Shown one piece after another: positions 2,780 to 62,336 of a DNA stretch of 64,000 nucleotides (within the stretch, counting starts at the first letter, position 1; every line of letters begins with the position of its first letter). Below the pieces are notes generated by a model that was not told where the DNA came from, searched no databases, and saw only the letters and a program-made list of their open reading frames with translations. This stretch comes from Moniliella sp. 'wahieum' (Eukaryota): the NCBI GenBank assembly GCA_003971905.1, contig RSEE01000049.1, positions 124,001-188,000 of the forward strand, given 5' to 3'. Position numbers and translations under genes: made by a program.

Positions 2780-4218
2780 CTAGGAACTCCCACGAGTCAT
2801 TACTGCATGGGGCAACCACGCGGCAGCAGGTCGGAGGTAAGCAGCACTGGCCCGTGCCACCCGAGGCGAACAGCGCCGAACCGAGAGCTACCGAGGGACA
2901 AAGCAGCGTGCTAAACTAATACCCTGTTCAGGCCTCCACACCGCCTCGCAGTCTCGCAGTATCCCCATTCTCGGGGCCTGCATCGCTCAGTGCAACTACA
3001 CCCTCGGCAGCCCTCAGCGTCAGCGCCTCAGCCACCACCCACCACTGTCAGCTCGTCTCGCTGGGGGCTGGGGCGGGCCGGTCTAATGCATTAATCAGCT
3101 GTTACATAGAGGGCCATGTGCTTGTCTATCAGCTTCAGGAGCTTCAGGGCCTCAGGCTAGCTTCAGACTTCACGTCACCGGTTACCGTCGGACAGTCTCT
3201 GGGTGTGGCAAGAGAAGGACACACACCTCCTGGGCCCATCCCGCCACCCCGCCACTCGCCACTCGCCACTCGCCACTCGCCACTCCGTCCGAGGACTACT
3301 CCACGAGGCATCAGTACATCAGTGCACCAGCCACCATGCATCATGCATCTGCATCAGCCCTGGGCGGGCGGAGGCGGGATCGTTTGGGGGAGCGAGAAGG
3401 CGATTGAGAGAGGCGAGTGTCCCATGCCACAGATGCTATCAGCACGCAGCGATCGTCGATGGTCGATGGCCCAGCCAGCGTCCCAGATCTCGAACGCGCG
3501 GCCTCCGCGGACGGAGATAAGGCCGAACAAGATACGGGGCCACACCAAAGCCGAGACATGCCGCCCACGTGGCGTCGGCCGCTTGGAGGGGATGCAGTTT
3601 TCAAACTTCAAGCTTCAAGCTTCACGTGAAGCTTCAAGCAGATCCCAGCGCCCAGCGGAGGCTCGATCCCACCCCACGCATCGGCAGTGCCCGCCCGTGT
3701 CTCAAGGCATCCTCAGCGTCGCCCCGGCCAGTGGGCGCTGGGCGCTGGGCGTCACTAGGTCACTACAGCGCTTCAAAGCTTCAATATTCAATTCACTCGA
3801 TCGCTGATCTCGGAGCTTCAGCGCCCTCAACACCCGCGTTTCACAATTTCACGCCTCACGGCATCATGCATCGTACATCACGCGTCACCACAATCCACAT
3901 GCCGTTGCAAGTTGCAGCACGTGTCCATATCACGTGCTCTCCATCTCACCGCCCATGCTTTCTCCCACCTGATCATCGCTGTACGCGCCGATCCAGCACT
4001 CAGCGGCTAAATGTCCACACCAAGGAATGGATGCAGGTATGGTTGAGCAGCAGACAATCTAAAGAATCAAGTGAAAAGGGGGCACAGGAGAACCAATAAG
4101 CCCCTGCGCCAATCCGCCCATCCGATCAAAGCACAGAGAGGCAACCAAGGCAGAACAACGTGGGAGGTTGATTCAGTCCAGCAAGCAACCTCCTCCGTCC
4201 AACTCGCGCCTTGTCCAT

Positions 4219-4958: not shown

Positions 4959-6026
4959 GGTATGGAGGGGGCAGACTGCCTGAGGTCGGGCGAACGAGAG
5001 GTGGGGCGGGGACAGGTCGGGCAGGCCGCCAGCCGAGTCTGCAAGCTCCAAGCTTTGCCCCTCAGGCGTCACGCGTCACGCGTCACCCTGCTAGGCCGGG
5101 TGGGGCCTGTGTGGCCGGTGGGGCCTGTGTGGCCCCGGGACGAGCACTGCAGGTGTGAAAGACGGCGCCATGGGGATTAGGTAATCGGGTGGATATTGGG
5201 TACTGCTTACCGGTTGCCGGTTACTGATTGCCGGTTACATTTTGATTGGTTGCAACTGGCCCAGGCCGGCGCAGTGCGCTTCAGCTGGCACCGCACAGGG
5301 GCACTGCAGCCAGCCCTTATAATAAGCGTAATGGTTGCCTCCCTTCGTTGCTACTGTCCTTCGCTCCCCCTTCCGGGTCGCGTCCGCCGTCGCTTGCTTG
5401 CTGCTCCACTCAATACATCCTTTCCGCTGCTTTGGTCTGATACTCAGATGAGTTTCCTGACGTTTTCCCTCCTTGCGTTGTGGGGCCAAAACATAAAGCG
5501 GAGGAAAAGTACAGTGGATCTAAAAGAAATTAGAAAAGAAGCCTACGGGAAGATCTCTGCAGGAAGATCACCGTCTGATCCATAAGACGGGACGAGAACA
5601 ACCAACTCGAATCGGAAGAGAGAGCAAGGCAAAGACAAGAATTGGAAAAACGCTCACTCGTTCCCTTAAAGCGAAACCGTTCTATGCACAGCAGATGCGT
5701 GACTCTTTTTGCACTAGAAAAGAGGAAATGACAGTACTAGAGTCATAGGTTGGCTGATCTCGTACCCTTTTACAATTTGTTCGTCTCGAGTGTCTCGCTC
5801 TTTTTCCCTATTCTTCCGCTTCACGCCTATGTCCTTTGCTGTTGTTTCTTCCCCACGAACAATTCCGACATTTTTTGGCCTAGTCTTGGCTCTTGCCTCC
5901 CTCGCCTTCTCAGAGCCTCGAGTGTGATAGGTAGTGTAAGCGCTCTCCTCAACAACAGTATCTTTTACCCTATCCAGTCTGATAACACAGTCCACAATAA
6001 GGACACTGAGAGAAAAAGGACAAAGA

Positions 6027-6176
6027 GAGATGAAATCCACATATGGGCAGAGCAAAGGCGATGAAATCCACAAGGACAGAGAACAAGGAAAGGAGAGATG
6101 AAATCCACATAAGGGCAGAGAAAAGGCGATGAAATCCATATGGATGGGGAAAGAAAACGAGCGATGAAATCCACAT
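6027..6176. repeat. Minisatellite: GATGAAATCCA core x5
   Basis: Core starts at 6029, 6060, 6097, 6128 and 6163 (spacings 31, 37, 31, 35). Spacers are purine-rich and similar to each other. Confidence 0.85.
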
Positions 6177-6299
6177 GGGTACAGAACACAAAGGAGCGAG
6201 AGAGGGCGCGGAGAAAGCCTAGGCGGAGCGACCAAAAAGAAACGAAAGTGGAAGAGATAAAGGTAGGAAAACAAGTGAAATAGACACATGGGGTGGAGG

Positions 6300-8148
6300 G
6301 GGCGTTGCCTACACGGCCGACCGCGTGGATACGATGATCGGTTCGGGATCCGGAATGGGATACTCGATGCCATCGAGGACGATGGTGCGAATGGGTGCCG
6401 AGTTCGGCGACCAGCGGATGGCCGCGCCAGCTGGGTGGTGCGCGGTGGGGTGTGAAGACGATCGACGTCGAGAGAATCTTCGGCGGGGACCGATTCCGTC
6501 TCGGGAACGGGAAGCAGTGCCGGCGCGACCGGGACCGCTTCGTGCTGACGGTCCTCCTGTTTTTCCGTTTGCTTCGATCCATTCTCCACCTTGTTGGGCT
6601 TGGAGCTGGACGGCCCCGGTTTCTTGCTCTCCTTGTCCTCGGTCCCTGTTGACCAGAAAGAAGAAGCAAGCGCGACGGCGCCTCCTGCGGACGGCCAAAG
6701 ACAATGTCCGAACCAGGCATGTACTCGTACCCGGCCTTGTTGGCGTCGAGGAAAAAGTCCGGGTCGGCAGTCGCGGCGCCCTTGCGGAACTGGTCCCCAT
6801 CGAGTAACCCCAGTCCCTGCAGCGGCGGCTTGGCTTCGTCCACCTCCTTGCGCACAGCTTGCATGTGCACCCGTAGCTGTCGCAATGTGCCTGTCTGTAC
6901 GCTCGGCAACGGACGGGACGATCCATAGGTAAACGCCGACGTCTCTACATCTTCCTCCAGTAACGCCATGGGCGCCGGTACGGTGATCTGGGCAAGGCAT
7001 TGACGCGCTTGGTCTTCGTCCCACTCCGTCTGCAGCGGGTAGGCACAAACGTGACGGACAATGGCTGAGCGAACGGTACGCAGTTCCTGACGCGCCTCGA
7101 GTGCAATGCGCTCGTATTTCTGGCTGCGTTCGCTGAGCTTTTGCTGTCGCATCACCGACCGTTCTTTCTCCCGACTGACATGGTTGATGCACCACGTAGC
7201 CTGGGCAAAGGAGCACTCGAGAGTTTGGTGCAAACTGCCTTTGTGGTGCTCAGAAGCCCGTCGGGTGGGCAACTTGTGCAGCTCGACAATTGTCATGTCG
7301 GGCAAGGCAGCGACGCCAATGTTGGCCACACGAGCTTGGGCCATGATGGTAAACAAACGGCCGCTAAGAATCTTGGCCATCTGCAAAATAGGGGAGATGG
7401 TACGGGTCAATTCGTATTCGTGACCATTGAGGATCTCCTTGCCCGTGGGGATGCGCGACTTGATGCGAATGTCGACCGTCTTGGCAATCGCTTTGCGCAC
7501 ACAGGCCAGTAACTCCTGTGCGGTCTTTTTGGCCTTTTCAAGATAATCCCGGCGCATGTGCTTCTCGCGCTCCGATTCAAACAGCAGTTTCTTGCTCAGG
7601 TCCGTCAACGAGTCGAGCTGGAACTGGGCTTTCTTCTCGTGGGTGTGCCAAAGGCCTGCAATCTTCGTCGCGGGCAGAGGTTGGAAGAGCGTAGCATGGA
7701 ACTGGTCCAGCTCTTTGACCACCTCACGGCGCTCCATGGCCAAGTGCTGGAGACGAGCCTTGTCCCGCTCTGCCTGCTCAATGTGTTGCAGCAGTTGCGC
7801 CAGACAAGCGCGGGCATCGGTCTCCCTCTGTCGAGCCCGGAGCAGCTCCTGCTGTAGCTGCACTGCCCGACGTCTCTTGGCGCGCGAAAGACGCACAAGA
7901 GCGCGCTTGCCAAGGTGGGTAGTCAGTTCCTGGTGCTGCTGCTGGGACGACTGGGCCGCGATACCCATCGCGCGCAGTTCCTTCACCTGCACACACAGGC
8001 GACCACGACTGGTATAGATCGCCTCGTCAGCCCGCTCCACTTTGGCATCCAACACGCCAATGGCCTCTAGCCGCGTGCTCAGCGTCTCGTGTCGCGCGCG
8101 CCCGGCCGTAGCCAAGGCAAGAGCCGCGGTGGGGGCCAAGACGGACAT
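6300..8148 (-). CDS. Hypothetical coiled-coil protein; 3' end uncertain
   Basis: Long ORF from ATG 8148 with L/E/Q/R/K-rich helical composition over about 480 aa. The distal part changes frame and runs into low-complexity sequence. No family recognised. Confidence 0.65.
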
Positions 8149-8999: not shown

Positions 9000-9220
9000 T
9001 CCCTTGCTCCGCCCGAAGACCGACCCCGTCCGATGTCGGTCCCATTGCACCCCTTCCTCTCGCCCCAGGTCCCGATTCACGTATCCTGTCTCGTCCAATG
9101 ATCATTGAGCGCATTGAGCGGGCTGCCTGTCACCATGTCACCACAGACGGAGACGATCGAAGGGCCTCGACGATCGCCCTCCCCCTTTAGAGGTTTTGCG
9201 TGACCCTATGGAAGAGAAGC

Positions 9221-9398
9221 AAGTCTCAGTGGAAATGGTTCCTCGCTCGGATGTCAACCACGTTCCTCCGTGTCCACACGCGCTTCCTAGGGTACGGGAC
9301 CGGATGGCGTGAGCCGGAGGGCCTGATATCCTGGCGATCCCCCTGGTCCCTTAATCTTGGTGGCGCTTCCAAGTAACCCCCGCAAGATGAACGGTTCG
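9221..9398 (+). mobile_element. Short 3'-terminal fragment of the RLE non-LTR retrotransposon found at 32.0-32.8 kb
   Basis: Near-identical to 32664-32842 (AAGTCTCAGTGGAAATGGTTCCTCGCTCG...CCCCCGCAAGATGAACGGTTCG), with scattered substitutions and a 1-nt indel. Confidence 0.85.
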
Positions 9399-11685: not shown

Positions 11686-12829
11686 ACTTGATCCATCCCT
11701 CCGTCTTCTCATGTGTGGTGTGAGATCATTTAGTAATAGTGTATCCCTGACCGCGTCCGATCCTGTTTTCATTTTGGTCCAACGCTTCCGTTCTAAGCCA
11801 GTTAGGCGTTGATGCTGATGGTATAGAAGGGGTGGGAGAGATGGGGCTCTGCGCCCGGGACTGCGCATCTTTGTTCTGCTTCAGCCGCTTTGCCAACAGG
11901 CGCCTGAGCCCATCCCAGTCGTCAGACGCCCGCAGAAATGCGAAACGTCAACATACTGGCGAGCTAGCTGAATGGCAGCCTCCTTGCGTCAACGTAACGT
12001 TGTTTCTCGATTCTGCCGATCTGGTTATCTCTGGCTCGCATCCCCATGGACTGAAAATGATTGCAGCTCATACACATGGCCCAAGGAAAACAATGGCCAG
12101 CCTCAACAGCCTCGTTGGTTCAACCAACATGTGGGTTGTTGGTTGTGGGTTGAACTTCAACGTCGAATGTTGAATGCGCCTGCCACTTCGAAAATGGCAA
12201 TATCTCGCACAGGTATCGTCATATCTCCCTTCCACATCGCTCTCCCATCGCAACATACAAAGTCACCCAAGCATCGCATGCAATCTATGCCGATGCGTAG
12301 TAAGACGGGAACGGCCTCCACGGGGCCAACACAAGGAAAGAGGGGTAGTATTAGCTCCAAGCTCGAGGGAAGCTTGTGGTTGATAAGAACAGTAGGCAGG
12401 CGATCACCCGCCCTAGAGCGTCCACGCGCTGCCGCGGCCCGAGATGCGAGAAGGCAATGCGGGCGCAGGGAGGCGGTGTGATGGTGGTGGCGGGGGGCGG
12501 CGGACTGGACGGAGGGCGAGGGCGGAACCAGCGGCGGGCTGGACAGGACATGCGGGAGTACTGATGTACTGATGCAGCCCCGTGCGCAACCGGTGCCAAG
12601 GGCGGCGCCTGGGGGGCAGTGTGTGACTGCCTCTCCAGTAGGGTTGTTCATGGAGATGGCGTGCTATCAACACTCTCGCCGTGCCATGCGAACACCGCAC
12701 ACTCTCCCACTGCCCGCCGCCCGCCCGCGCGGAGAAGAGTGGAAACTTGCAAAATTGGAGCCCGGTGCGATGAGCACGGCGCGAGTGTCGTGTGCCTCCC
12801 CCATGCGGGGTGTGCGTCGAGCGACGGCG

Positions 12830-23676: not shown

Positions 23677-24314
23677 TCAGATGTCGATGAATTTAGAAAT
23701 GCAGCGAAACAAGAGAGAAGGCATACTTTGTCAGTGAGAAGATCAAAGAGGTGGATGAAGGAAAACAACAGTTGGGACCCCAACCCGCCCGCTTTTATAT
23801 CAGTCCTCTCTGACGCGTTGAATATGAGACCGCTCCTAGTGTGGTATCGACCAATCATCATGCATCATCGATCGTCGATCATCAATTAATGAACAGGATT
23901 GTGTCTGAGATCTGACACCCAGAAGGGGCTGCGTCAGCTGGGTCCTGCTGCGTCTCGTTTCCCGACTTGTGAACGTTGTGAACGTGGTATGAGGCCATGA
24001 GGCCTATGAGGCTGGGGGATGCCCATGTTCGTTCACACGTTCACAAAACAAGAGAAAGCGATGGCATCCACATTTCAACCCTGCAACATTTCAATAGTGT
24101 ATCTTCGTTGTCGGTGGTGATGATTCTGTTGGACTCAAGCAGGCGAGCGCGTTGTGAACGTACGGAAGGCAGATTGTATGTTGCGCTTGCTCGCCCTTGG
24201 CTTGCGGCTGTTTGGCACCCGCATGCCCCTCTCCCGAAGATATATATAGCACCTTTGCGTGAGGTTGCAGCCACCCCTTTCCGTTATCGCATTGCTCCCC
24301 GCTTTACTCGCATC

Positions 24315-24805
<491 letters not shown>

Positions 24806-25384
24806 AAGGTCTTCGTCCTCCCTTTCTCTTCCCTGTACAACTACTGTTTCAATCATGTGCTGCACCGACCAATATACTATTTACTTAATGGCATCCATCG
24901 TCTGCATTCGGTACATGTATAGCGCTGCCTTCATCTTGAAGGATGGATTGATGCTGAGATCTGAGAGAATACTGAAGATGTTGACGGCATATGCTTCAAT
25001 GTGGCTCCCGTAGCCACGGGCGATTGATTACAAGATTTGCTCTTGTCACTACACTGACCTGTGCCGTCCTCACAATCTCCAGCGACTAGCGAACCCCCAG
25101 GGAGGGCGTCACAACATGGGGAATGAGATGGTTTTAACGGATCTATAACAACAAAACGACATTAACGTCGTTGGTTGCTGAGTCAATGAGGGCGATAACC
25201 TACGAATGCGAGCTGCAGTTACTACTACTTACGCGTACACATCCAGGTAGGAGGTTACCACGAAGTTTACTTCGAGTTCAACGTCAACAGTTACCGGTTA
25301 ACGTTTAACATTCATCTTGAGCAGCTGGCCATACCTTCATAGACTCACAACACCATGAACGTTGACCGTCGAACAGAATTGCTA

Positions 25385-32009: not shown

Positions 32010-32842
32010 GATGGTCGCCATGTGGTTGAGCACAGCAACCCGCTGAGCCACAACTGGCTCTCCGCCATTCCATCCGTCCCGTACCTCAAGCTCTCTGACC
32101 AGCAGGTCCAGGTTGGTCTCCAGCTCCGCACGCTGTGCCGCACCACGCGCAGCATGTGCAAGTGCGGCGTCATGTCCTCGCTGGAACACATCATGTCCTG
32201 CACCCGCACCCAGGCCAAGTTTGGTGCGTTGCATGAGGCAGTGCGGGAGCCCATTCTCCAGCTCCTACGCTCCATCCCCGACACCCACGTCCACAAAGAA
32301 CCTATGGTGGAGGAAGAGGATGGGACGAGGCGCGGACGGAAGGCACAGCGCACCGACTACCGCGTGATGGGGCCCGGAGCACTGGGAGGAACCGGAATGG
32401 AGGTAGACCACACGCTGCGCGACACGGGATCGCAGGAGGCGCAGAGCGCGTACCGGCGGGTGGTGCATGAGAGCACTGCGTCGCCTTTGGAACGCCGGGA
32501 GAAGGAACTGCTTCGGCTGCTTGAACAAGCAGAATGCGACAAGAACGCCAAGTACCAGGGACGCACTCAAGAACCGTTTTTCCCCCTGGTTTTGACGACG
32601 CGAGGATACTACGGCACCAAGACGGCGGGCAAGTTGTTTGCGCATTGGAAGGAGTTGGCTACTAAGTCTCAGTGGAAATGGTTCCTCGCTCGTATGTCAA
32701 CCACGTTCCTCCGTGTCCACACGCGCTTCCTAGGGTACGGGACCGGATGGCGAGAGCCGGAGGGTCCTGATATCCTGGCAATCCCCCTGGTTCCTTGACC
32801 TTAGTGGCGCTTCCAAACAACCCCCGCAAGATGAACGGTTCG
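32010..32842 (+). mobile_element. 5'-truncated RLE-type non-LTR retrotransposon (CRE/Cnl1/MoTeR-like): zinc knuckle + restriction-like endonuclease C-terminus
   Basis: ORF 32022-32798: 'WLSAIP..LKLSD..VQVGLQLR', CCHC 'CKC..EHIMSC', 'LHEAV', 'RTDY..EVDHT..KNAKY..FFPLVLTTRG'. No RT domain upstream; the 3' end is duplicated at 9221-9398. Confidence 0.8.
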
Positions 32843-51735: not shown

Positions 51736-54700
51736 GCCGGGCGGCGACGACGACTGGGGGGGGGGGGGACACAGAGACGAGGGGCGGAGGGCAGGGGCGA
51801 AGGAGTGCAGAGCGGTGGTGGAGGCGGAGTATATAGTGGGCACGTATATTGATTGCACGGCCAAGTCGGCTGCCCCCCGGGGCGGGGCCCTTCTGCTCCG
51901 CTGTGCGCTCGGGCTCACTGCCGCAAGCTGCGACGCAGCGCTCCGGCTGTGTCCTCGCCTCAGCAGCCTGGAGCGCTGGGCAACTGCGGGGACTGAGCAC
52001 CAGTGTATCCATCAGATCCCAGAGGACGCGAATGAGTGGGCGCACTCAGTCCCAGGACACCTCGCTTGGGTCAGACTCCGTCAGAGTATGCGTACTCAAT
52101 GAGTACATCCCTCGGCCACATCATCCATCGGCTGCATCATGCTCCTCCTGAGTGGAGTAGCCCAGCAAGTTCACTTGATCATGCACCATGCATCATGCAC
52201 CATGCACCACTCCCACCCCCACGCTGATGCATGACGGTGACGCGTGACGTCCCTGACATGTGGCATGCGCCTGGGAGTGACAGGTAGCTGTGACGTGTGG
52301 CATGCTGGCCGGAGCTTATTCTAAGCGCTATCTGCCCACGCATCAACAAAGTCACCGATTCTGCTGCTGGGTACGCGTGATTGGTGGGCTTGCCCTGGGG
52401 TACGGCCCTGGCAAGGCCTAGCGAAGCCCAAGCAAGGTCTGGCGTCGCCAGCGGGGCTGCAGCCGAGATCCGATTGATATCTTCCAGTATTCAACGTTCC
52501 AATTCTGCTGGATGAACGTTCATTGAACGATCAAGGCCTCAAGCCGCTCAGCCTGAGCGGCTCATCGCTCAGTGTATTCAATGCGGTCAATAGTTTTGGC
52601 ACGGCCCATGGAGTGTTCCTGCCTGTTCCTTATTTTCCTCCCTCACGCGGTACCCAAGCCGGGGCAAGCAAACGCAAGAAAGATTCCTGGGCCAGCAACG
52701 CGTTAGGTACGGCATGTCCCAGAGCAAACCGATTGGTGCCCAACGCGCCCAACTCGCGTCCTTTGTTTCAGCACACATACATGTGGGTCTACCGTGTGCG
52801 GGGAGGGGGGCGAGGAGGGAGAGAGAGAGACAAGATCCGGGGAAACATAACCAGGAACTGCTCTGCCTTTTTACCACTCAGACCACACCGCTCCTTGAGG
52901 AGACCTCTCTCCTTCTTTTGCCCCACGGGCCCATATGTGTGCCTTTCTTCGCGGAGAGCTCGTTTATTTGGGATCTTCTTCGGGCTGTCTGGAAGGGGTG
53001 TAACATGTAACAGGTTGCTGTACTGAATATACTGATGAATGAGGCCTGAGGGCCCGAAGCTATGTAGGAATCCGAGTGGAACACTGTCCTCTATGTGCCC
53101 TCCCAGGCCCTCCCATGTACGCCAGCCGTCACAACGCCGGCAACTGGGCAGACCCGTGATCGAGGCTTCCGGGGCGGGCGATTGAAAAAACTGCCATCGA
53201 CATGCTCAGCCTGAGTGCTGAGACTCAGCAAAGTGGACTGCATGGTGGTACTTACGTCTCTCTTCAGAGTGCTACACGTGGTCAGAGCTAATTGCGACAT
53301 CGAAGCCTAGACCGTGGATTGTCGAGAAAAGAAAACAGGGTGGGGGGCAGGGGACCACAGAGGCCGCTACGCGTTCAATACCATGGGGTTTGCTGGGGTG
53401 TCTCAAGCGTCAAGTCCGAGTCTCCTTCAATTATTTTGGGGACATATAATTTTTGTCTTTTCTTCGGGCTCGCTTCCGGTCCAGCCGCTCTGGCTCCCTC
53501 TGGCCGGGTGCCAAGCCCACCATCCCTGTCTTTTCTATACCTAACCCCCTTTGTAGAAGAACGTTTGATGGTCTGGAGGCTTTGACGTTCTTCCCCCCTT
53601 TGATTCAAAACATATACGAAGATCTCCTCGGGCAACAGGGGAGTTCTTCCGCATCATCTCCCGTCGTTGATGAGATGAAAACCGTCCATCCTGCATGATC
53701 ATGCTTTGAAGCGTTCGTCGATCTGTTGTGTCCTCCCGACGTGAATATGATGAACACATATACCTGGGTGGGGGTTACCTATCCCCCCTATCCGTCTCAA
53801 CTCCATTTACTGTATTATGCATCAGGAATTAAAGCGTCGATCTCGGCGAGCACATCTTCTAGAGTCGAATCTCCACTCCATGGAGCGAAGCAGATATAGC
53901 GAATTTGAATATTCGTCCCAGCACAGTATACCGCTAAAGTACACGGTGTCCTTGAAAAGGAATACCATTAGATTCTGATGGGATGTCCTCCCCTTTTCGC
54001 GCACTTTGATCCCAAGACTCATCCCGCGACAAGCGTCACCGCCCACGCACAACTAAAAGTTCCACCAGGACCTTGAACCTCTGTCCTCGAATCCAGTCCG
54101 TGTGGTCCCATTCGATGTATAATATCCGCACTTGCGCAGGCTTTGTTGAGGAAGAAAACTGAGTATCTTCGATCCATAATATTCCCTGCGCCAGCCAGTA
54201 TGGTAATGCCTGTCGTTCGTCCGTGCAAGTACGCGGTGACAAGGCGTCTCTGCCCCAGCTTCTCCTCCGGGTGCAAACCTTTTCTCACCTCGGCCGCGCT
54301 GCGAGGAAGACAGCCAGCCGGCCTGCCTGTCGGACGCTCTCTGGTAGCAGGGAGCACACCACTTCCCGCTCCCACCTGGAGCAAACCTATACAACTGTGG
54401 GTGGCGGTACCACATATCTACCCTCGCAAAGAAAGATGACGATGCGGGGCGTACGGTGCAGCATGGTGGTGAAGCTGCGGTGGCACACACGCAGCGGTGA
54501 AAGCAGTGTTTTACACAGTGCGAGATCCCCAACTGAGGGGGGAGAAGAACAAACACCAGAGGGCTTGATCAAAAGATGTTTCGTCTTCAACAAAGCCAGT
54601 ACCTCAACTCCACCTAGACGAGGGGGCAGATCCTTCCCCCTGCCTTGCCTGGAAGGACAGAGTGACAACATATCAACGTACTGATCAACTACAAGCAAAT

Positions 54701-55256
54701 GGACGCAACGGTCATGTACAACGTCTCGTCCTTTTGTCTAGTTGAAACCCTCCCCCTCCAGCACCCCCTCTGAACTGTTCGGCTGTCGTGAGTGGGAGGT
54801 ACTTTGTCGTGTATGATGCCAGAAGCCTGTTTCTATATCTAGATGGGATGACGAAGGAGGAAATACCCATTGCCGCACTATAGTATGCAATCTGTAGTTG
54901 TCTCTCGCAAGGATAGGCATGAGAAGAGGCCCATCTTGATGCATGTTGGGGAAGAGGATGCATCAGCCTGATCTGTGTGACATGTGACTAGATGGCTCTT
55001 CTCTCCATACTACCATGGCTGCATCTTTTTCAGGCGCCGAAGCAGGAAGGAAGCTGGAAGCGAGATGGAGCGTGAGAGCAAAGTTAGGTGACGCGCGTGA
55101 CGGGGGGGGCGACATGTGGGTAGCCGGTGATTTGGCGATGGCCCGCCAGCATGAAACGTTCAAGCGGTGTTCGGCTCCCAGGGTTAGGTGAGCGCCGGGA
55201 GTATGCAAGGGCATGCATGCATGCATGCACATGCGCGGTGTGCGGCGGGGGGAGCA

Positions 55257-55304
55257 TGTGACATGTGACATGTGACATGTGATGCATGATGCATGATGCT
55301 GATG
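55257..55304. repeat. In-register 7-mer array (TGTGACA)x3-TGTGATG-(CATGATG)x2
   Basis: Units at 55257, 55264, 55271, 55278, 55285 and 55292, preceded by (GCAT)n at 55211-55228. Confidence 0.95.
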
Positions 55305-55667
55305 CATGTGCGGCTGGCTGCTGTGGGGCGTGTGGCGAGGGTGCTAGTGTGGTGCACTCGTGGCGCCGCCCGGCTGCACGCACGGGGGCGCATCCGCATG
55401 TGGCACAGGGCGCCCGCCAGGGGGCAGTGTGTTGCCCGGTTTGTTCTGGCGGAACAGGTGGTGCTGACTTGGAGCTGGGAGACTCAGGCTGTCGGGAGCT
55501 CCCTATTCCATCCCGAGCACCGAGCAGTCAGGCGACGGGTGATCGGTGAGGCTCACTAGCTGCACTGGCCGCGGGTCCAGGGTTCTGCGCCGTATCACCG
55601 GTGCCAACGTGACTTGGCCAGGCACTTCCACTCCCCCTCGTCGCCCCTCGTCCCCCGGGTGCCGAGG

Positions 55668-58600
55668 ATGCCCGCTGCGCTCCCGCCGGCGCTGCCCACC
55701 CCACGCCCTCGCCCTCGCTCTCGCCCACCCCCAGCTCCACCGCCCTCCCCGAGCCCTGGCCGCTGGACTCGGCCGAGAGAGAGAGGACGATGCGTCGGAT
55801 CGTCACCAGGAAGCGTCCGCACCCGCGCCCGCACCCGCGCCCGCACCCGCGCCGCACCGCGCCCGCCACCTCCACCAGCCCCCAGCCCCCGCCCGTTCTC
55901 CTGCCCGCCCCAAACCCCTCTCCCCGCCCGCAGTGCCGCCCACCACGCCCACCATCCGTCTCCCTCCGTCTCGAGTGCGTCTCTCGATGGCTCCCATCCA
56001 GCATCTCCCGTCAAGCCCAAGAGCACCCTTCCCCCCCCACCACCGCCATCGCCGCCTCTACGGCGACCGCATCGTCTCCCACAAGATCACCCACCACCGC
56101 CCCCTGCCCCCTGCGCCTCGCCCTAAGCACCCAACAGAGGAGATTTCGCCCGTACCTTCCGTCGACACACCCGTCTCGCCCCCGCCACAGGCGCCTCTGC
56201 CTCCGACGTGCCCCGACCGGGCTCAGAAGACGCGTCTACTACTCTCTCCGCTCCCGTGACTGCCGACCCCGCCTCCTTGGGCGCCACGCTAAGCGCAGAT
56301 CTGGTCCGTGCTAAGAAACGAGGCTGAGATGGCATGGAATGAGGACCTTCATCTTGTTCCGCGCGAACAGATCATCTTTTGGCTCGGGCGTCCGGCCCTT
56401 GCCACTGGCCTACCGAGGCTGAGGTTTTCGGCGGCCCGACGAGCTTACATGGACCACTTTGACTTTACCAACAAGAGCGTTGACGCCGCTTTACGGATGC
56501 TCTGCGGCAAGCTACTAGTTCGGGCAGAAACCCAAGTACTCGACCGGGTCTTGGATGCCTTTGCCCACCGTTTCTACGAATGCAACCAGCCCCCTGGCCA
56601 ACGGGCTGTACCATTCTCCCGCTCTTGTACACCATTTGGCGTACACGTCTTGTTGCTCAACACCGATCTCCATGTGGCCGATATGGGGCACGCGACTCGT
56701 GCGCAGTTTGTACACAATACTCTCCACACCCTGCGTTCTGAAGAAGAAGATGGTCTTTCCCTTTTCTCAGCACGCAGTAGCACACCTGACCCGCCCTTTG
56801 GTGCTCCTGAGCCCTGCTGCCTCCATATCTACCACTTTCCCCCATCACGCTCATGGTGCACCCCCCTTGTCCCCCAATCTTCCAGGCGGAAGCCCACGCA
56901 AGCCACGCCGCCGCCCATTTACTCGCCCTTCGACACACGGCTCGGCTGACTTGGCTGTCGATGCCTTCGACCCTGTTTGGACGGGCGAAATGGAGAGCAT
57001 GCTCAAGGCACGTACCCCCCCCCCCTCCTCTCCCTGCGATGAAATTCAATTAACATCCTCTCCAGGAAACCTACTCCGCTGTTCGAGCAGAGCAAATTCG
57101 GCTCCCCTCCTGGAGTGGGGAGGCACTGGGAGGACTCCATCCAAATCCTGGAGGGAGCAAACGCGATGTGCGCCGGGCAGCATCCGTGGCCTTCCAGCCC
57201 TACTGTCTCCCTCGAGCGCCTCTCCACTGCGGTTCAATGAACCTATTCTCTCTCCATTGGCCGGTGGCGCGGCCAATGGGACAGAACAGTCCACGCGGCC
57301 TTCTGCACCCGTCGGGTTCGCCTCTTCCCTCAGCCAGACCATCATCCCTGAGGGACAAACTTCGCGTCAGCGAGAGCCTAGCAACCTCACTGACGTAAGA
57401 GAGGATGAGGAGGAGGCGCCTTCTTCCCCGACAAAAGCGGCCACACAACCCCCGCTGCCTCCTTCTGACTTACCCATCCAAGGTCCTGCACCAATTTTGG
57501 AATCCGATTTGGCCCTGGTAGGTCCTCCCTGGGCCAAAGAAGGGATGCTACACGCAAGCAGTTCACTGAACCGGATGGCGCCCCGTGCCAAGGATAAGTC
57601 TTGGTTGGAAGTCTTCGCTGTGGTGCATGATCCTGGCATGATCTCTCTCTTCCGTTTTGACTCTTCTTCCTCTTCCTCGGGAAAGCTGTTGGAGGAGGGA
57701 ATTGGGCCCTTAACGCCCACCAGGTGGGACAGGTGCCTTTACAACATGCTATCGCCCATGCACTTCCTCCTCCAGGATACAGTCGTTCCCGGCCCCACGT
57801 GGTTAGCCTTCACCTCGCGAGCGGTGCCGTGCTTTACTTCGAGACGTCCCATGAAGGCTTGGTTGGAGAATGGTGCGGTCGATGAACTACTGGGCCGCCC
57901 GTACCTCGCTGTTCTCACTGTCGAGCCTGTGACAAGCCTCGACTTTGGTTGGAAGTTTCCCGAGCAATCCTCCTCATCGCAGTCCCCCTCAGGCTCAGGC
58001 TCAGGCTCAGGATCGGGGTCCAGCTTAGACCGAACCTTTGCCCCTACCTCCGCTCCTGATTCCACCTTGGCCTCCACTCCATTGGGAAAACGCCCGTCCT
58101 CACCCTCACGCTTGCTCGCCCCTTAGTCCAAGCGAGGGCCACCTCCCTGGAAGTGTGCGTGCAGTGTCCGATGCAGGCAGCTCTGCCTCTTTGAATGCTC
58201 TCACTCGTCCTTCGACCTCGGGAACTGGTCATACCTCCTTCCAAACCTCTGAACCTTCAACAGGCTCGCCAAACCAAGACGAACGCCGCGCCTTTCCTAC
58301 GGGCAAGGAGCTAAAGAACTCGCTTCATCGTGGCCCCTCCCACGACGTTATACGCTCTACGTTTTCTGGCCAGATGCCCTCTCCTGTGGCGCGGCGTGGC
58401 TTGGCGGGTCTCGGCAAGGCCCTGCTTGGTCTCGGAGCTAAAGTTTCCAGTGGCCGACCGGCCCATGGACTCGACGTGCGGCACGGACGTGCTGGCTGGC
58501 GCTCTGCATCGCCCAACGAGATGACCAAGTTCCCTTACGAGCGCGACTTTATTGGGACCTGGGTACCTCCCACAGCCCATGCGCATCTCGACTTTCTCCG

Positions 58601-59017
58601 AGTCGCAACAGCTGAACGCGTTGCAGGACACTGTGATGCGTACCGAGGTCTTTTGGCACAACATCAAGCTGTGCGAAGCCGGATGGTGGCGCGCTACCAT
58701 CCCAGGGGGAACAATGCCGCCCTGCCAAGGCCAACGGGACCCGCAAGCAACATTACCTTCTCGACGAACTGAGCAAGTACCGTAACTACGTCACCGTTCT
58801 CCGTGTCGCCCGGGACAAACGCGCGCGGCTGCGCCGCAAACCAGATGGAACGATTGTCGATCCGCTGGTGGAACCGGTGAACGGTACTTTGGACTTTGCT
58901 TCTGCTTCTGCGTCTGCTTCTGCGTCTGCTTCTGCGTCTGCTTCCCTTCCTCGTCCCACTCTTGCTCAGCCTCCTCATCCTTCTTTCCGTGGCTTGCCCC
59001 TAACCCCTAACCCCTAA
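55668..59017 (+). CDS. SYT1: Sec7 + PH domain ARF guanine-nucleotide exchange factor (Syt1-like); start uncertain
   Basis: 'YMDHFDFTNKSVDAALRMLCGKLLVRAETQVLDRVLDAFAHRFYECN', 'LLLNTDLHVAD', 'LALVGPPWAKEGML', 'KDKSWLEVFAVV', 'YLLDELSKYRNYV'. Last frame stops at TAA 59015-59017. Confidence 0.85.
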
Positions 59018-59021
59018 CCCC
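58997..59021. repeat. (CCCCTAA)x3 telomere-like interstitial repeat
   Basis: CCCCTAACCCCTAACCCCTAACCCC read directly; overlaps the SYT1 stop codon. Confidence 0.8.
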
Positions 59022-59985
59022 TCATCCATCTGTCCCCTGTCAGCTTATGGCCCCTGCGTCCGGGCCTAGCTCCGTTTGTTTATATCTTGCTGTGCCTGTC
59101 CATCTTTTATGCACTGCTTGTATCATCTCTTGGGGAGAGAATGTGGTACGCTGTGCTTCTTCTCTCCTTTCTTCTCCTCCCCTGTTCTTCCTGTGTGTAG
59201 GCAGAAACACTGTCCGGAAAGCGGTGTGGCGGTAAGGTAAAGTGACAACCCGGATGCGCAGGCGTCCCAGGTCAGGATCTACGATCATACCCTTCTCCCC
59301 TTTTCAGCAGTCTCTCATTCACCCCACCATCGTCAGCGTCGTTTGCATAGTGATGCTAGCTAGCCCTGATATACGCCTTTATAGGCCCCTCCCTGCCTTG
59401 TCTATGCTTGGACCATTGCCCTTGTATTCGTACGCACGCCTGTATCGAAGGCCGATCGTGGGTTTAGCCATGGACGGGACGCGGGCAGAGGGGAGATGTT
59501 CAACGTCTTCAACATCCAGTGTCCACCTTGGCACTCGCCGGCGCTGCAACCAACACCAGCCAACGCCGCCCTCCCGCCCGCGCCTGGGCTGCTGTGCTCG
59601 CCAGCCCAGCGCCCTGGTGCTGCGCCCGCTGCGCTCCGCGCCACGTCGTGTGGTGCGCCCCGCCCTGCACAGGGGCTGTGTGTTACGTCACCCGCTGGAG
59701 CATCACGCACCCAGCGTCACCCGTCAGATGTTCAGATCTCAGAGCTGGGAGCTGCGGCGCTTCAAGAAGCAGCCGGGCGGGACACAGCCCCTGTGCTGTT
59801 CTTTCCCCTGTCCCCTTCCCGCTCGCGTCTGGCCGCCATGGACCATCCATCGCTGCCGGCGGGGTTGCGCTGGCAGTACACGCTGAGGTGCCTGCCGTCT
59901 CTGCGCCACCTCCTCCGCGTCCGCTTTCCCACCCCGCCGCCACCCTCACCCTCTGCCCCGCTCCTTGTCCCCAGCTCAGCCAACC

Positions 59986-62237: not shown

Positions 62238-62336
62238 GGGCTCATGGTGTAGTGGTATCATGCCTCTTTCGGGACTTTCCCGAGCTGGATTCAGTTCGAA
62301 TAGAGGTGGTCGTGGGTTCAATTCCCGCTGAGCCCC
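62238..62336 (+). tRNA. tRNA-Pro(CGG) with 27-nt intron
   Basis: Acceptor GGGCTCA/TGAGCCC, D-arm TGGTGTAGTGGTATCA, anticodon stem CCTCT/AGAGG with CGG at 62270-62272, intron 62274-62300 after position 37, T-loop GGTTCAATTCC, TTTT terminator just downstream. Confidence 0.93.

Follow-up and report, generated by a model that had tools for sequence, protein, structure and literature searches.

The non-coding DNA of the window, by which the whole 64-kb stretch analysed here is meant, follows one rule: at a site xy-TNA-zw seven bases are added, five as a direct copy and two as an inverted copy. The array at 55257-55304 is the only place in the window where both products of this rule occur, in several copies each, on one founder. 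With moderate confidence, we read it as a stack of +7-bp scars laid down at this founder by repeated insertion and excision of a cut-and-paste element with a 7-bp target duplication. While hairpin footprints as such are already known, a near-deterministic 7-bp scar which iterates into tandem arrays is new as judged by a literature search, in which no description of iterated heptamer scars was found.

If this reading holds true, the locus adds a two-sided record from one founder, in which both repair products of one inferred 7-bp target lie side by side, and both edges of the target together with the 2-nt offset of hairpin opening would be fixed from sequence alone. The scars of transposon excision would then have a testable route to seed and extend microsatellites in non-coding DNA, as a mutational signature that, at about 2 per kb of spacer in the window, is dense enough to shape promoters.

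The compound array and its surroundings

The window is ordinary eukaryotic gene space, with MetE, Sin3, SPT6, SNF2, Sec7, an ABC transporter and a tRNA. The tRNA match (62238-62336, 99 nt, Rfam RF00005, 49.3 bits; no call by ARAGORN in bacterial mode) probably bears an intron, in agreement with a eukaryotic genome. Tandem repeats of 31-68 bp with a GATGAAATCCACAT core are found at 6009-6199 in a 727-aa open frame on the minus strand (5965-8148), which has no Pfam match. A metagenome scan with the 523-aa frame downstream of the array retrieved 52 pattern matches, none encoding a relative of the query, and an exact 24-mer from the array flank gave 0 matches. The features needed for the argument are as follows.

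25289..25309: compound chain AG-TTA-CCGG-TTA-ACGT-TTA-AC with GGTTAAC as hybrid unit, flanked by two palindromic spacers that differ
54976..54989: independent single scar TG-TGA-CATG-TGA-CT, 270 bp upstream of the array
55211..55229: tetranucleotide repeat (GCAT)4.8, 26 bp upstream of the array
55255..55256: CA, by which the periodicity of array A extends 2 nt further left than 55257
55257..55277: array A, (TGTGACA)3, units TG-TGA-CA with spacer CATG; left-type product of the founder
55278..55284: founder or hybrid unit TGTGATG (TG-TGA-TG), non-palindromic, single copy
55285..55298: array B, (CATGATG)2, units CA-TGA-TG with spacer TGCA; right-type product
55299..55304: CTGATG, 6 nt, a B unit minus one A (spacer TGC, not TGCA)
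55305..55308: CATG, partial unit by which the periodicity of array B goes 4 nt past the last TGATG
55546..58126, plus strand: open frames of a Sec7-domain protein (Pfam PF01369, E 4.4e-17, in 56308-56949), the first of them about 240 bp downstream of the array

The stretch 55257-55304 reads (TGTGACA)3-TGTGATG-(CATGATG)2-CTGATG. The structure (TGTGACA)3-TGTGATG-(CATGATG)2 put forward in the original prediction is borne out with matching coordinates, the arrays being longer than it had stated: Tandem Repeats Finder reports period 7 with 4.0 copies and 100% matches for 55255-55282, and period 7 with 4.3 copies, 91% matches and 8% indels for 55280-55308. Written in the register of the TNA core, the locus is TG-TGA-(CATG-TGA)3-(TGCA-TGA)2-TGC-TGA-TGCA-TG, which is one unbroken TGA lattice with zero offset between the two arrays, along which CATG gives way to TGCA as the 4-nt palindromic spacer at the founder. 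As these two spacers differ at all four positions, neither array is a simple mutant of the other. The arrays had been described as palindromic, which is true of the 3-nt arms of the units and does not extend to the centre base, a G in 7/7 units.

The inverted dinucleotide CA of array A is the reverse complement of the left flank TG of the founder, and the CA of array B is the reverse complement of its right flank TG. Starting from the founder TG-TGA-TG, the left product is TG-TGA-CATG-TGA-TG and the right product TG-TGA-TGCA-TGA-TG; as one palindromic-arm unit is gained per event, on the side of that event, and the founder is kept, repetition gives (TGTGACA)n-TGTGATG-(CATGATG)m. The outer flanks, TG and TG, match the prediction of the rule. 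The founder itself is present once, with no exact tandem duplicate at the array. The 6-nt unit CTGATG can stem either from a later 1-nt deletion or from an imprecise join.

The periodicity overshoots the boundaries of the minimal model by 2 nt on the left and 4 nt on the right, which suggests a prior CATG-rich context or slippage; the (GCAT)4.8 repeat shows that the local sequence is already CATG-rich. At 54976-54989, left flank TG and spacer CATG are as in the array, the right flank is different and there is no flank homology to the array; a left flank TG has yielded a spacer CATG again at an unrelated site. The chain at 25289-25309 is the only other compound chain in the window, in which the right outer flank obeys the rule and the left outer flank does so in 1 of 2 nt.

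The +7 rule in non-coding DNA

Perfect heptamer arrays of at least two copies number 38 in the 64-kb window, compared with 7 for period 8 and 7 for period 9. Palindromic 3-nt arms are present, in some rotation, in 19 of the 38, when 11% would be expected for random heptamers, and all 19 have the form nnTnAnn, i.e. xyT-n-Ay'x'. The other 19 arrays are non-palindromic, an example being CGCCACT with 5.1 copies. An interstitial, telomere-like (CCCCTAA)3.7 array at 58997-59022 stands outside the palindromic TNA class; exact duplications of non-palindromic nnTNAnn heptamers are found only 2 times, both within this CCCCTAA array.

Adjacent nnTnAnn units had been predicted to obey a mirror rule at their junctions, whereby each unit begins with the reverse complement of the 3 nt that end the preceding one, more often than by chance. 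This is the case for 62 of 162 adjacent pairs, while 200 dinucleotide-preserving shuffles average 7.6 (sd 2.7, max 17); among control lattices in the real sequence, mirrored junctions amount to 9 of 106 for nnAnTnn, 24 of 419 for nnGnCnn and 11 of 354 for nnCnGnn. Across the 62 mirrored junctions the centre base is identical in 51 and complementary in 6, so that units are copied directly and are not reflected whole. At the array itself this direct copying of the centre applies to all seven units. The proposed inverted copying at each end is retained in a shorter form: only 2 nt are inverted, since what looks like a third mirrored base belongs to the T-N-A core, as its T or its A, and the other 5 nt are direct copies.

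The rule exists in two types. The left type adds y'x'+xyTNA, which results in xyTNA·y'x'xy·TNAzw, and the right type adds TNAzw+w'z', which results in xyTNA·zww'z'·TNAzw. A search for any pentamer followed by the reverse complement of its last 2 nt and by the same pentamer, made without presupposing TNA, gave 96 events when both strands were counted, 8.5±2.7 being expected; 69 of them carry T at pentamer position 1 and 73 carry A at position 3. Merging by locus leaves 48 TNA chains with 62 links; same-centre TNA-palindrome-TNA links number 51 against 2.3 expected, and the palindromic spacers are even and 4 nt long throughout the TNA chains of the window. The flank rule is followed by 27 of the 31 isolated events (8 of the left type only, 12 of the right type only and 7 of both, the latter being already palindromic targets), and 4 fail it, with 2.05 expected by chance.

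The filler between two TNAzw copies separated by 2 nt is the exact reverse complement of the last 2 nt in 64 of 79 events. Four of the remaining 15 belong to the CCCCTAA array, and most of the other 11, as read by eye, are one base off, as old scars would be; 6+1 products are absent among these 15.

With respect to location, long open frames, taken as stop-free stretches of 150 codons or more, make up 69.6% of the window and include 1480 of its 2445 TNA sites, yet contain only 7 of 46 rule-obeying links. The scars avoid coding sequence: the other 39 links lie in the approximately 19 kb outside long open frames, at a density of about 2 per kb of spacer. The chains hold 14 links beyond the first, while 1.04 repeat hits are expected when 46 events are placed at random on the 965 non-coding TNA sites; palindromic products are therefore preferred as targets, or slippage lengthens them. 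The 3-kb spacer 52200-55300 contains 8 TNA chains, and like clusters are seen at 3.0-5.1, 8.3-10.0, 22.7-25.4 and 44.3-44.9 kb; this local clustering suggests hot spots such as open promoter regions.

Other product classes were counted in the same window. The +3 product (TNATNA), in which both overhangs are lost, shows no excess (38 against 35.6), +11 products number 0, and an in-place flip of the terminal dinucleotide is seen in 2 cases against 0.11 expected. At TNA sites the +8 class has 9 members against 0.04 expected, and full 7+2+7 (+9) products number 3 against 0.03, all 3 also being exact 9-mer tandem duplications. As the Tandem Repeats Finder table has exact 8- or 9-mer tandem duplications at the positions of at least 5 of these twelve events, the +8 and +9 classes were dropped as support for a full 7-bp target. 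The 8-bp units have the form xy-TNA-z-y'x' and occur at 9128-9143, 12558-12574, 24030-24045, 23988-24012 and other sites, for example as TGTCACCA, GTACTGAT and CGTTCACA; at least 4 of 9 coincide with exact 8-mer tandem duplications in that table. At 3617-3634 an 18-bp perfect palindrome, AAGCTTCACGTGAAGCTT, links a (CTTCAAG) array to its mirror image; the T-N-A centre changes there from C to G (TCA-CG-TGA), whereas copies at other places are direct. A hairpin opened at a distance from its tip may have left this palindrome as a long P-nucleotide tract.

Proposed excision scars and competing explanations

In the mechanism we favour, each scar would correspond to one insertion and excision of an element which duplicates the 7-bp target xyTNAzw. 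On excision, both flanks would be sealed as exact-junction hairpins, a host nuclease would open each hairpin 2 nt off its tip to leave 4-nt self-complementary 3' overhangs, namely zww'z' on the left flank and y'x'xy on the right flank, and end joining would retain one overhang and clip the other. Opening 2 nt off the tip with one overhang kept leads to a 2-nt inverted copy, a 2-nt loss on the other flank and a net gain of seven bases, and the inverted dinucleotide, which always lies directly against the bases that it mirrors, bears the mark of P nucleotides left by hairpin opening. The absence of +11 products fits this scheme, since 3' overhangs cannot be filled in. A palindromic target would be left with two identical cohesive overhangs, whose joining would create a perfect tandem copy and would favour the growth of arrays.

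The length proposed for the target comes from the two alternative products. The left type mirrors xy, which places the flank terminus at x, and the right type mirrors zw, which places it at w; provided that a single sort of event makes both, the duplicated target would be the 7-bp xyTNAzw, one copy of which has been trimmed by 2 nt, while the direct repeat seen at the scars is 5 nt. As both products sit on one site at 55257-55304, the hybrid unit TGTGATG (55278-55284) would be the target duplicated at each event and would mark both of its edges.

The original prediction of a founder whose ends were copied by hairpin opening is thus partly supported, right in substance and overstated: TGTGATG behaves as a founder with flanks that seeded both arrays, and the junctions carry short inverted copies as expected from hairpin opening. 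The accompanying argument that slippage does not reflect a unit bears on the first unit on each side; any tandem copy of a palindromic-arm unit creates ACA/TGT or ATG/CAT junctions automatically, which limits the argument to those first units. Later copies in both arrays may come from slippage, further copies of palindromic units by ordinary slippage or by more excision cycles being indistinguishable at this array.

Several observations count against the element model. With strict criteria, elements with terminal inverted repeats and a 7-bp duplication have 0 candidates in the 64-kb window, so that we infer the agent; 6 candidates obtained with relaxed criteria were all artefacts of CTTCAAG arrays, and the motif CTCACTG/CAGTGAG, present 8 and 4 times in the window, occurs without element structure. 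The scar density outside open frames is very high for transposon footprints, and the near-uniform scar class contrasts with the heterogeneous footprints published, although a single genome reveals only the stereotyped class. The missing excess of the +3 product also counts against the model, as does the absence of a +9 join from the array, which might be expected at this founder because xy and zw are both TG and the overhangs share 2 nt, and the overshoot of the periodicity by 2 nt and 4 nt.

The only dispersed repeat of the window, two direct copies of 178 bp at 9221-9398 and 32664-32842 (identity about 95%, a single 1-nt indel, no match to Rfam at the gathering score), contains no 7-nt indels and is uninformative as an internal before-and-after comparison. 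Three other schemes were rejected: spacers contributed by Tc1-like element termini (TA-CATG-TA scars), as the spacers vary with the flanks; a hAT-type odd-palindrome model, as the palindromes are even; and an in-place flip, seen in only two cases.

The alternative that survives best, which we consider rather unlikely, is that the same 5+2 scar is made by another agent, a transposon-independent or domesticated nuclease or break repair acting at non-coding T-N-A, with no element entering or leaving. It would account for the lack of an element in the 64-kb window and for a very high scar density with a near-deterministic outcome, unlike the heterogeneous transposon footprints described in the sections of PMC4423477 and PMC5873905 used here. 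On the other hand, five directly copied bases need a staggered target duplication, which is natural to strand transfer by an element; we did not succeed in deriving the product from a simple break and hairpins without target duplication; and elements with 7-bp duplications exist in basidiomycetes (PMC12730594, in part).

Doubtful to a similar degree is a self-reinforcing form of DNA writing, in which a T-N-A-recognising activity, possibly a domesticated hairpin-forming transposase with no mobile element left, would add a flank-built 7-bp unit and thereby make a palindromic, cohesive-ended and preferred next substrate. The origin and growth of short tandem repeats would then lie with cycles of an enzyme and not with polymerase slippage, and the array would be a record of both first steps.

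An element with a 5-bp duplication, Transib-like, with TNAzw or xyTNA as the target and 2 P nucleotides from one flank only, is improbable as the source. The direct and inverted stretches observed, of 5 and 2 nt, respectively, would fit it, and Transib/RAG combines exact-junction hairpins with a duplication of 5 bp (compare PMC5499845). The TNA, however, would then occupy one end of the target only, an asymmetric arrangement for a symmetric T-N-A core, and P nucleotides would in every case have to stem from the end away from TNA, none from the end that carries it. The founder would furthermore need two 5-bp registers, TGTGA and TGATG, both of which are covered by one 7-bp target with 2-nt clipping.

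It is just as improbable that two ordinary slippage microsatellites merely abut and that their palindromic look is incidental. Heptamers can expand in this DNA, as the 19 non-palindromic arrays demonstrate, partial units at both ends of the locus are typical of slippage, and the (GCAT)4.8 repeat is only 26 bp away. Such an origin would nevertheless leave unexplained why all 19 palindromic-arm units are nnTnAnn, why the inverted dinucleotide matches the flank in 27 of the 31 single events, why both arrays share one TGA lattice without offset and how CATG and TGCA, with no simple mutation between them, came to adjoin. Neither does the strand have unusual hairpin potential: the DNA fold of 55250-55315 has -13 kcal/mol (z -1.2; 23 of 200 shuffles fold as well), by which a structure-driven origin of the array was also discarded.

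Finally, a selected cis-regulatory array of repeated binding sites upstream of the Sec7-domain gene is hardly credible in spite of the distance of about 240 bp to the open frame, as units of many unrelated sequences obey the rule in all spacers of the window, and what they have in common is a construction rule rather than a motif.

Comparison with known systems

Excision via flank hairpins with palindromic P-nucleotide footprints is known in fungi, as stated in the consulted parts of PMC5873905 and PMC5499845, and a close parallel to the excision scars favoured here is given by Ac/Ds and other hAT elements, for which the Coen hairpin model has been applied in plants, budding yeast and Candida albicans (PMC5873905, in part). 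Common to both are P-nucleotide palindromes and small flank deletions at the empty donor site and, if the target here is indeed 7 bp, a retained duplication; flank hairpins opened by host nucleases followed by non-homologous end joining are as proposed here. In Ac/Ds footprints the palindrome has the complement of the element-adjoining base at its centre and is odd in length, whereas the palindromes of the window are even, zw/w'z' (CATG, TGCA), so that this feature of hAT footprints is lacking. Ac/Ds furthermore leaves many kinds of footprint, 28 among 128 in Candida albicans according to the part of PMC5873905 drawn on, and footprints in rice are perfect in 8 of 94 cases, with mean deletions of 18 bp and mean fillers of 13 bp (PMC4423477, in part); in the window, a single kind prevails, in two orientations. 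Ac/Ds has a target of 8 bp; that of the window, by our deduction, is 7 bp, which would suit hAT7 (PMC12730594, in part) and not canonical hAT elements, and iteration into tandem arrays, as seen here, is not described in the sections of PMC5873905 used.

Basidiomycete elements with 7-bp target duplications are hAT7 of rust fungi and Kyakuja of Laccaria (PMC12730594, in part). The likeness consists of the 7-bp duplication and the same fungal phylum, and hAT7 clusters with Ac/Tam3-type hATs, which are users of flank hairpins. The consulted portion of PMC12730594 reports no scars or arrays for either group, and the likeness is one of duplication length. A member of the hAT7 or Kyakuja group was not detected in the 64-kb window, nor was any other mobile element with the same target duplication as the scars.

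V(D)J coding joints and Transib/RAG are characterized by exact-junction hairpins with 2-nt P nucleotides. They resemble the scars in the even palindromes at the joint and in a hairpin opened about 2 nt off the tip with a 4-nt 3' overhang. They differ in that Transib/RAG-like elements make 5-bp duplications, the target here being deduced as 7 bp (direct repeat 5 nt), and in that V(D)J coding joints vary and receive N additions. No Transib/RAG-like element or transposase is seen in the window. The hairpin chemistry common to these transposases is summarised in PMC5499845 (in part).

With ordinary heptanucleotide microsatellites the array shares head-to-tail 7-bp units in few copies in non-coding DNA. 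It departs from them by the constraint of the unit to xyT-n-Ay'x', by first units that are built from the flank with a 2-nt inverted copy and by the arrangement of two types around a hybrid founder. The unconstrained unit with direct copies only, as expected from slippage, is contradicted by the nnTnAnn form of all 19 of 19 palindromic-arm arrays, the later palindromic copies being compatible with slippage. Exact tandem duplicates of a non-palindromic target, as in perfect footprints, are restricted to the two in the CCCCTAA array. What the window does share with hairpin footprints is the inverted copy of the flank terminus, evident in 64 of 79 fillers, in 27 of 31 events and in the CA on both sides of the founder, and with the Transib/RAG group the even P-nucleotide palindromes.
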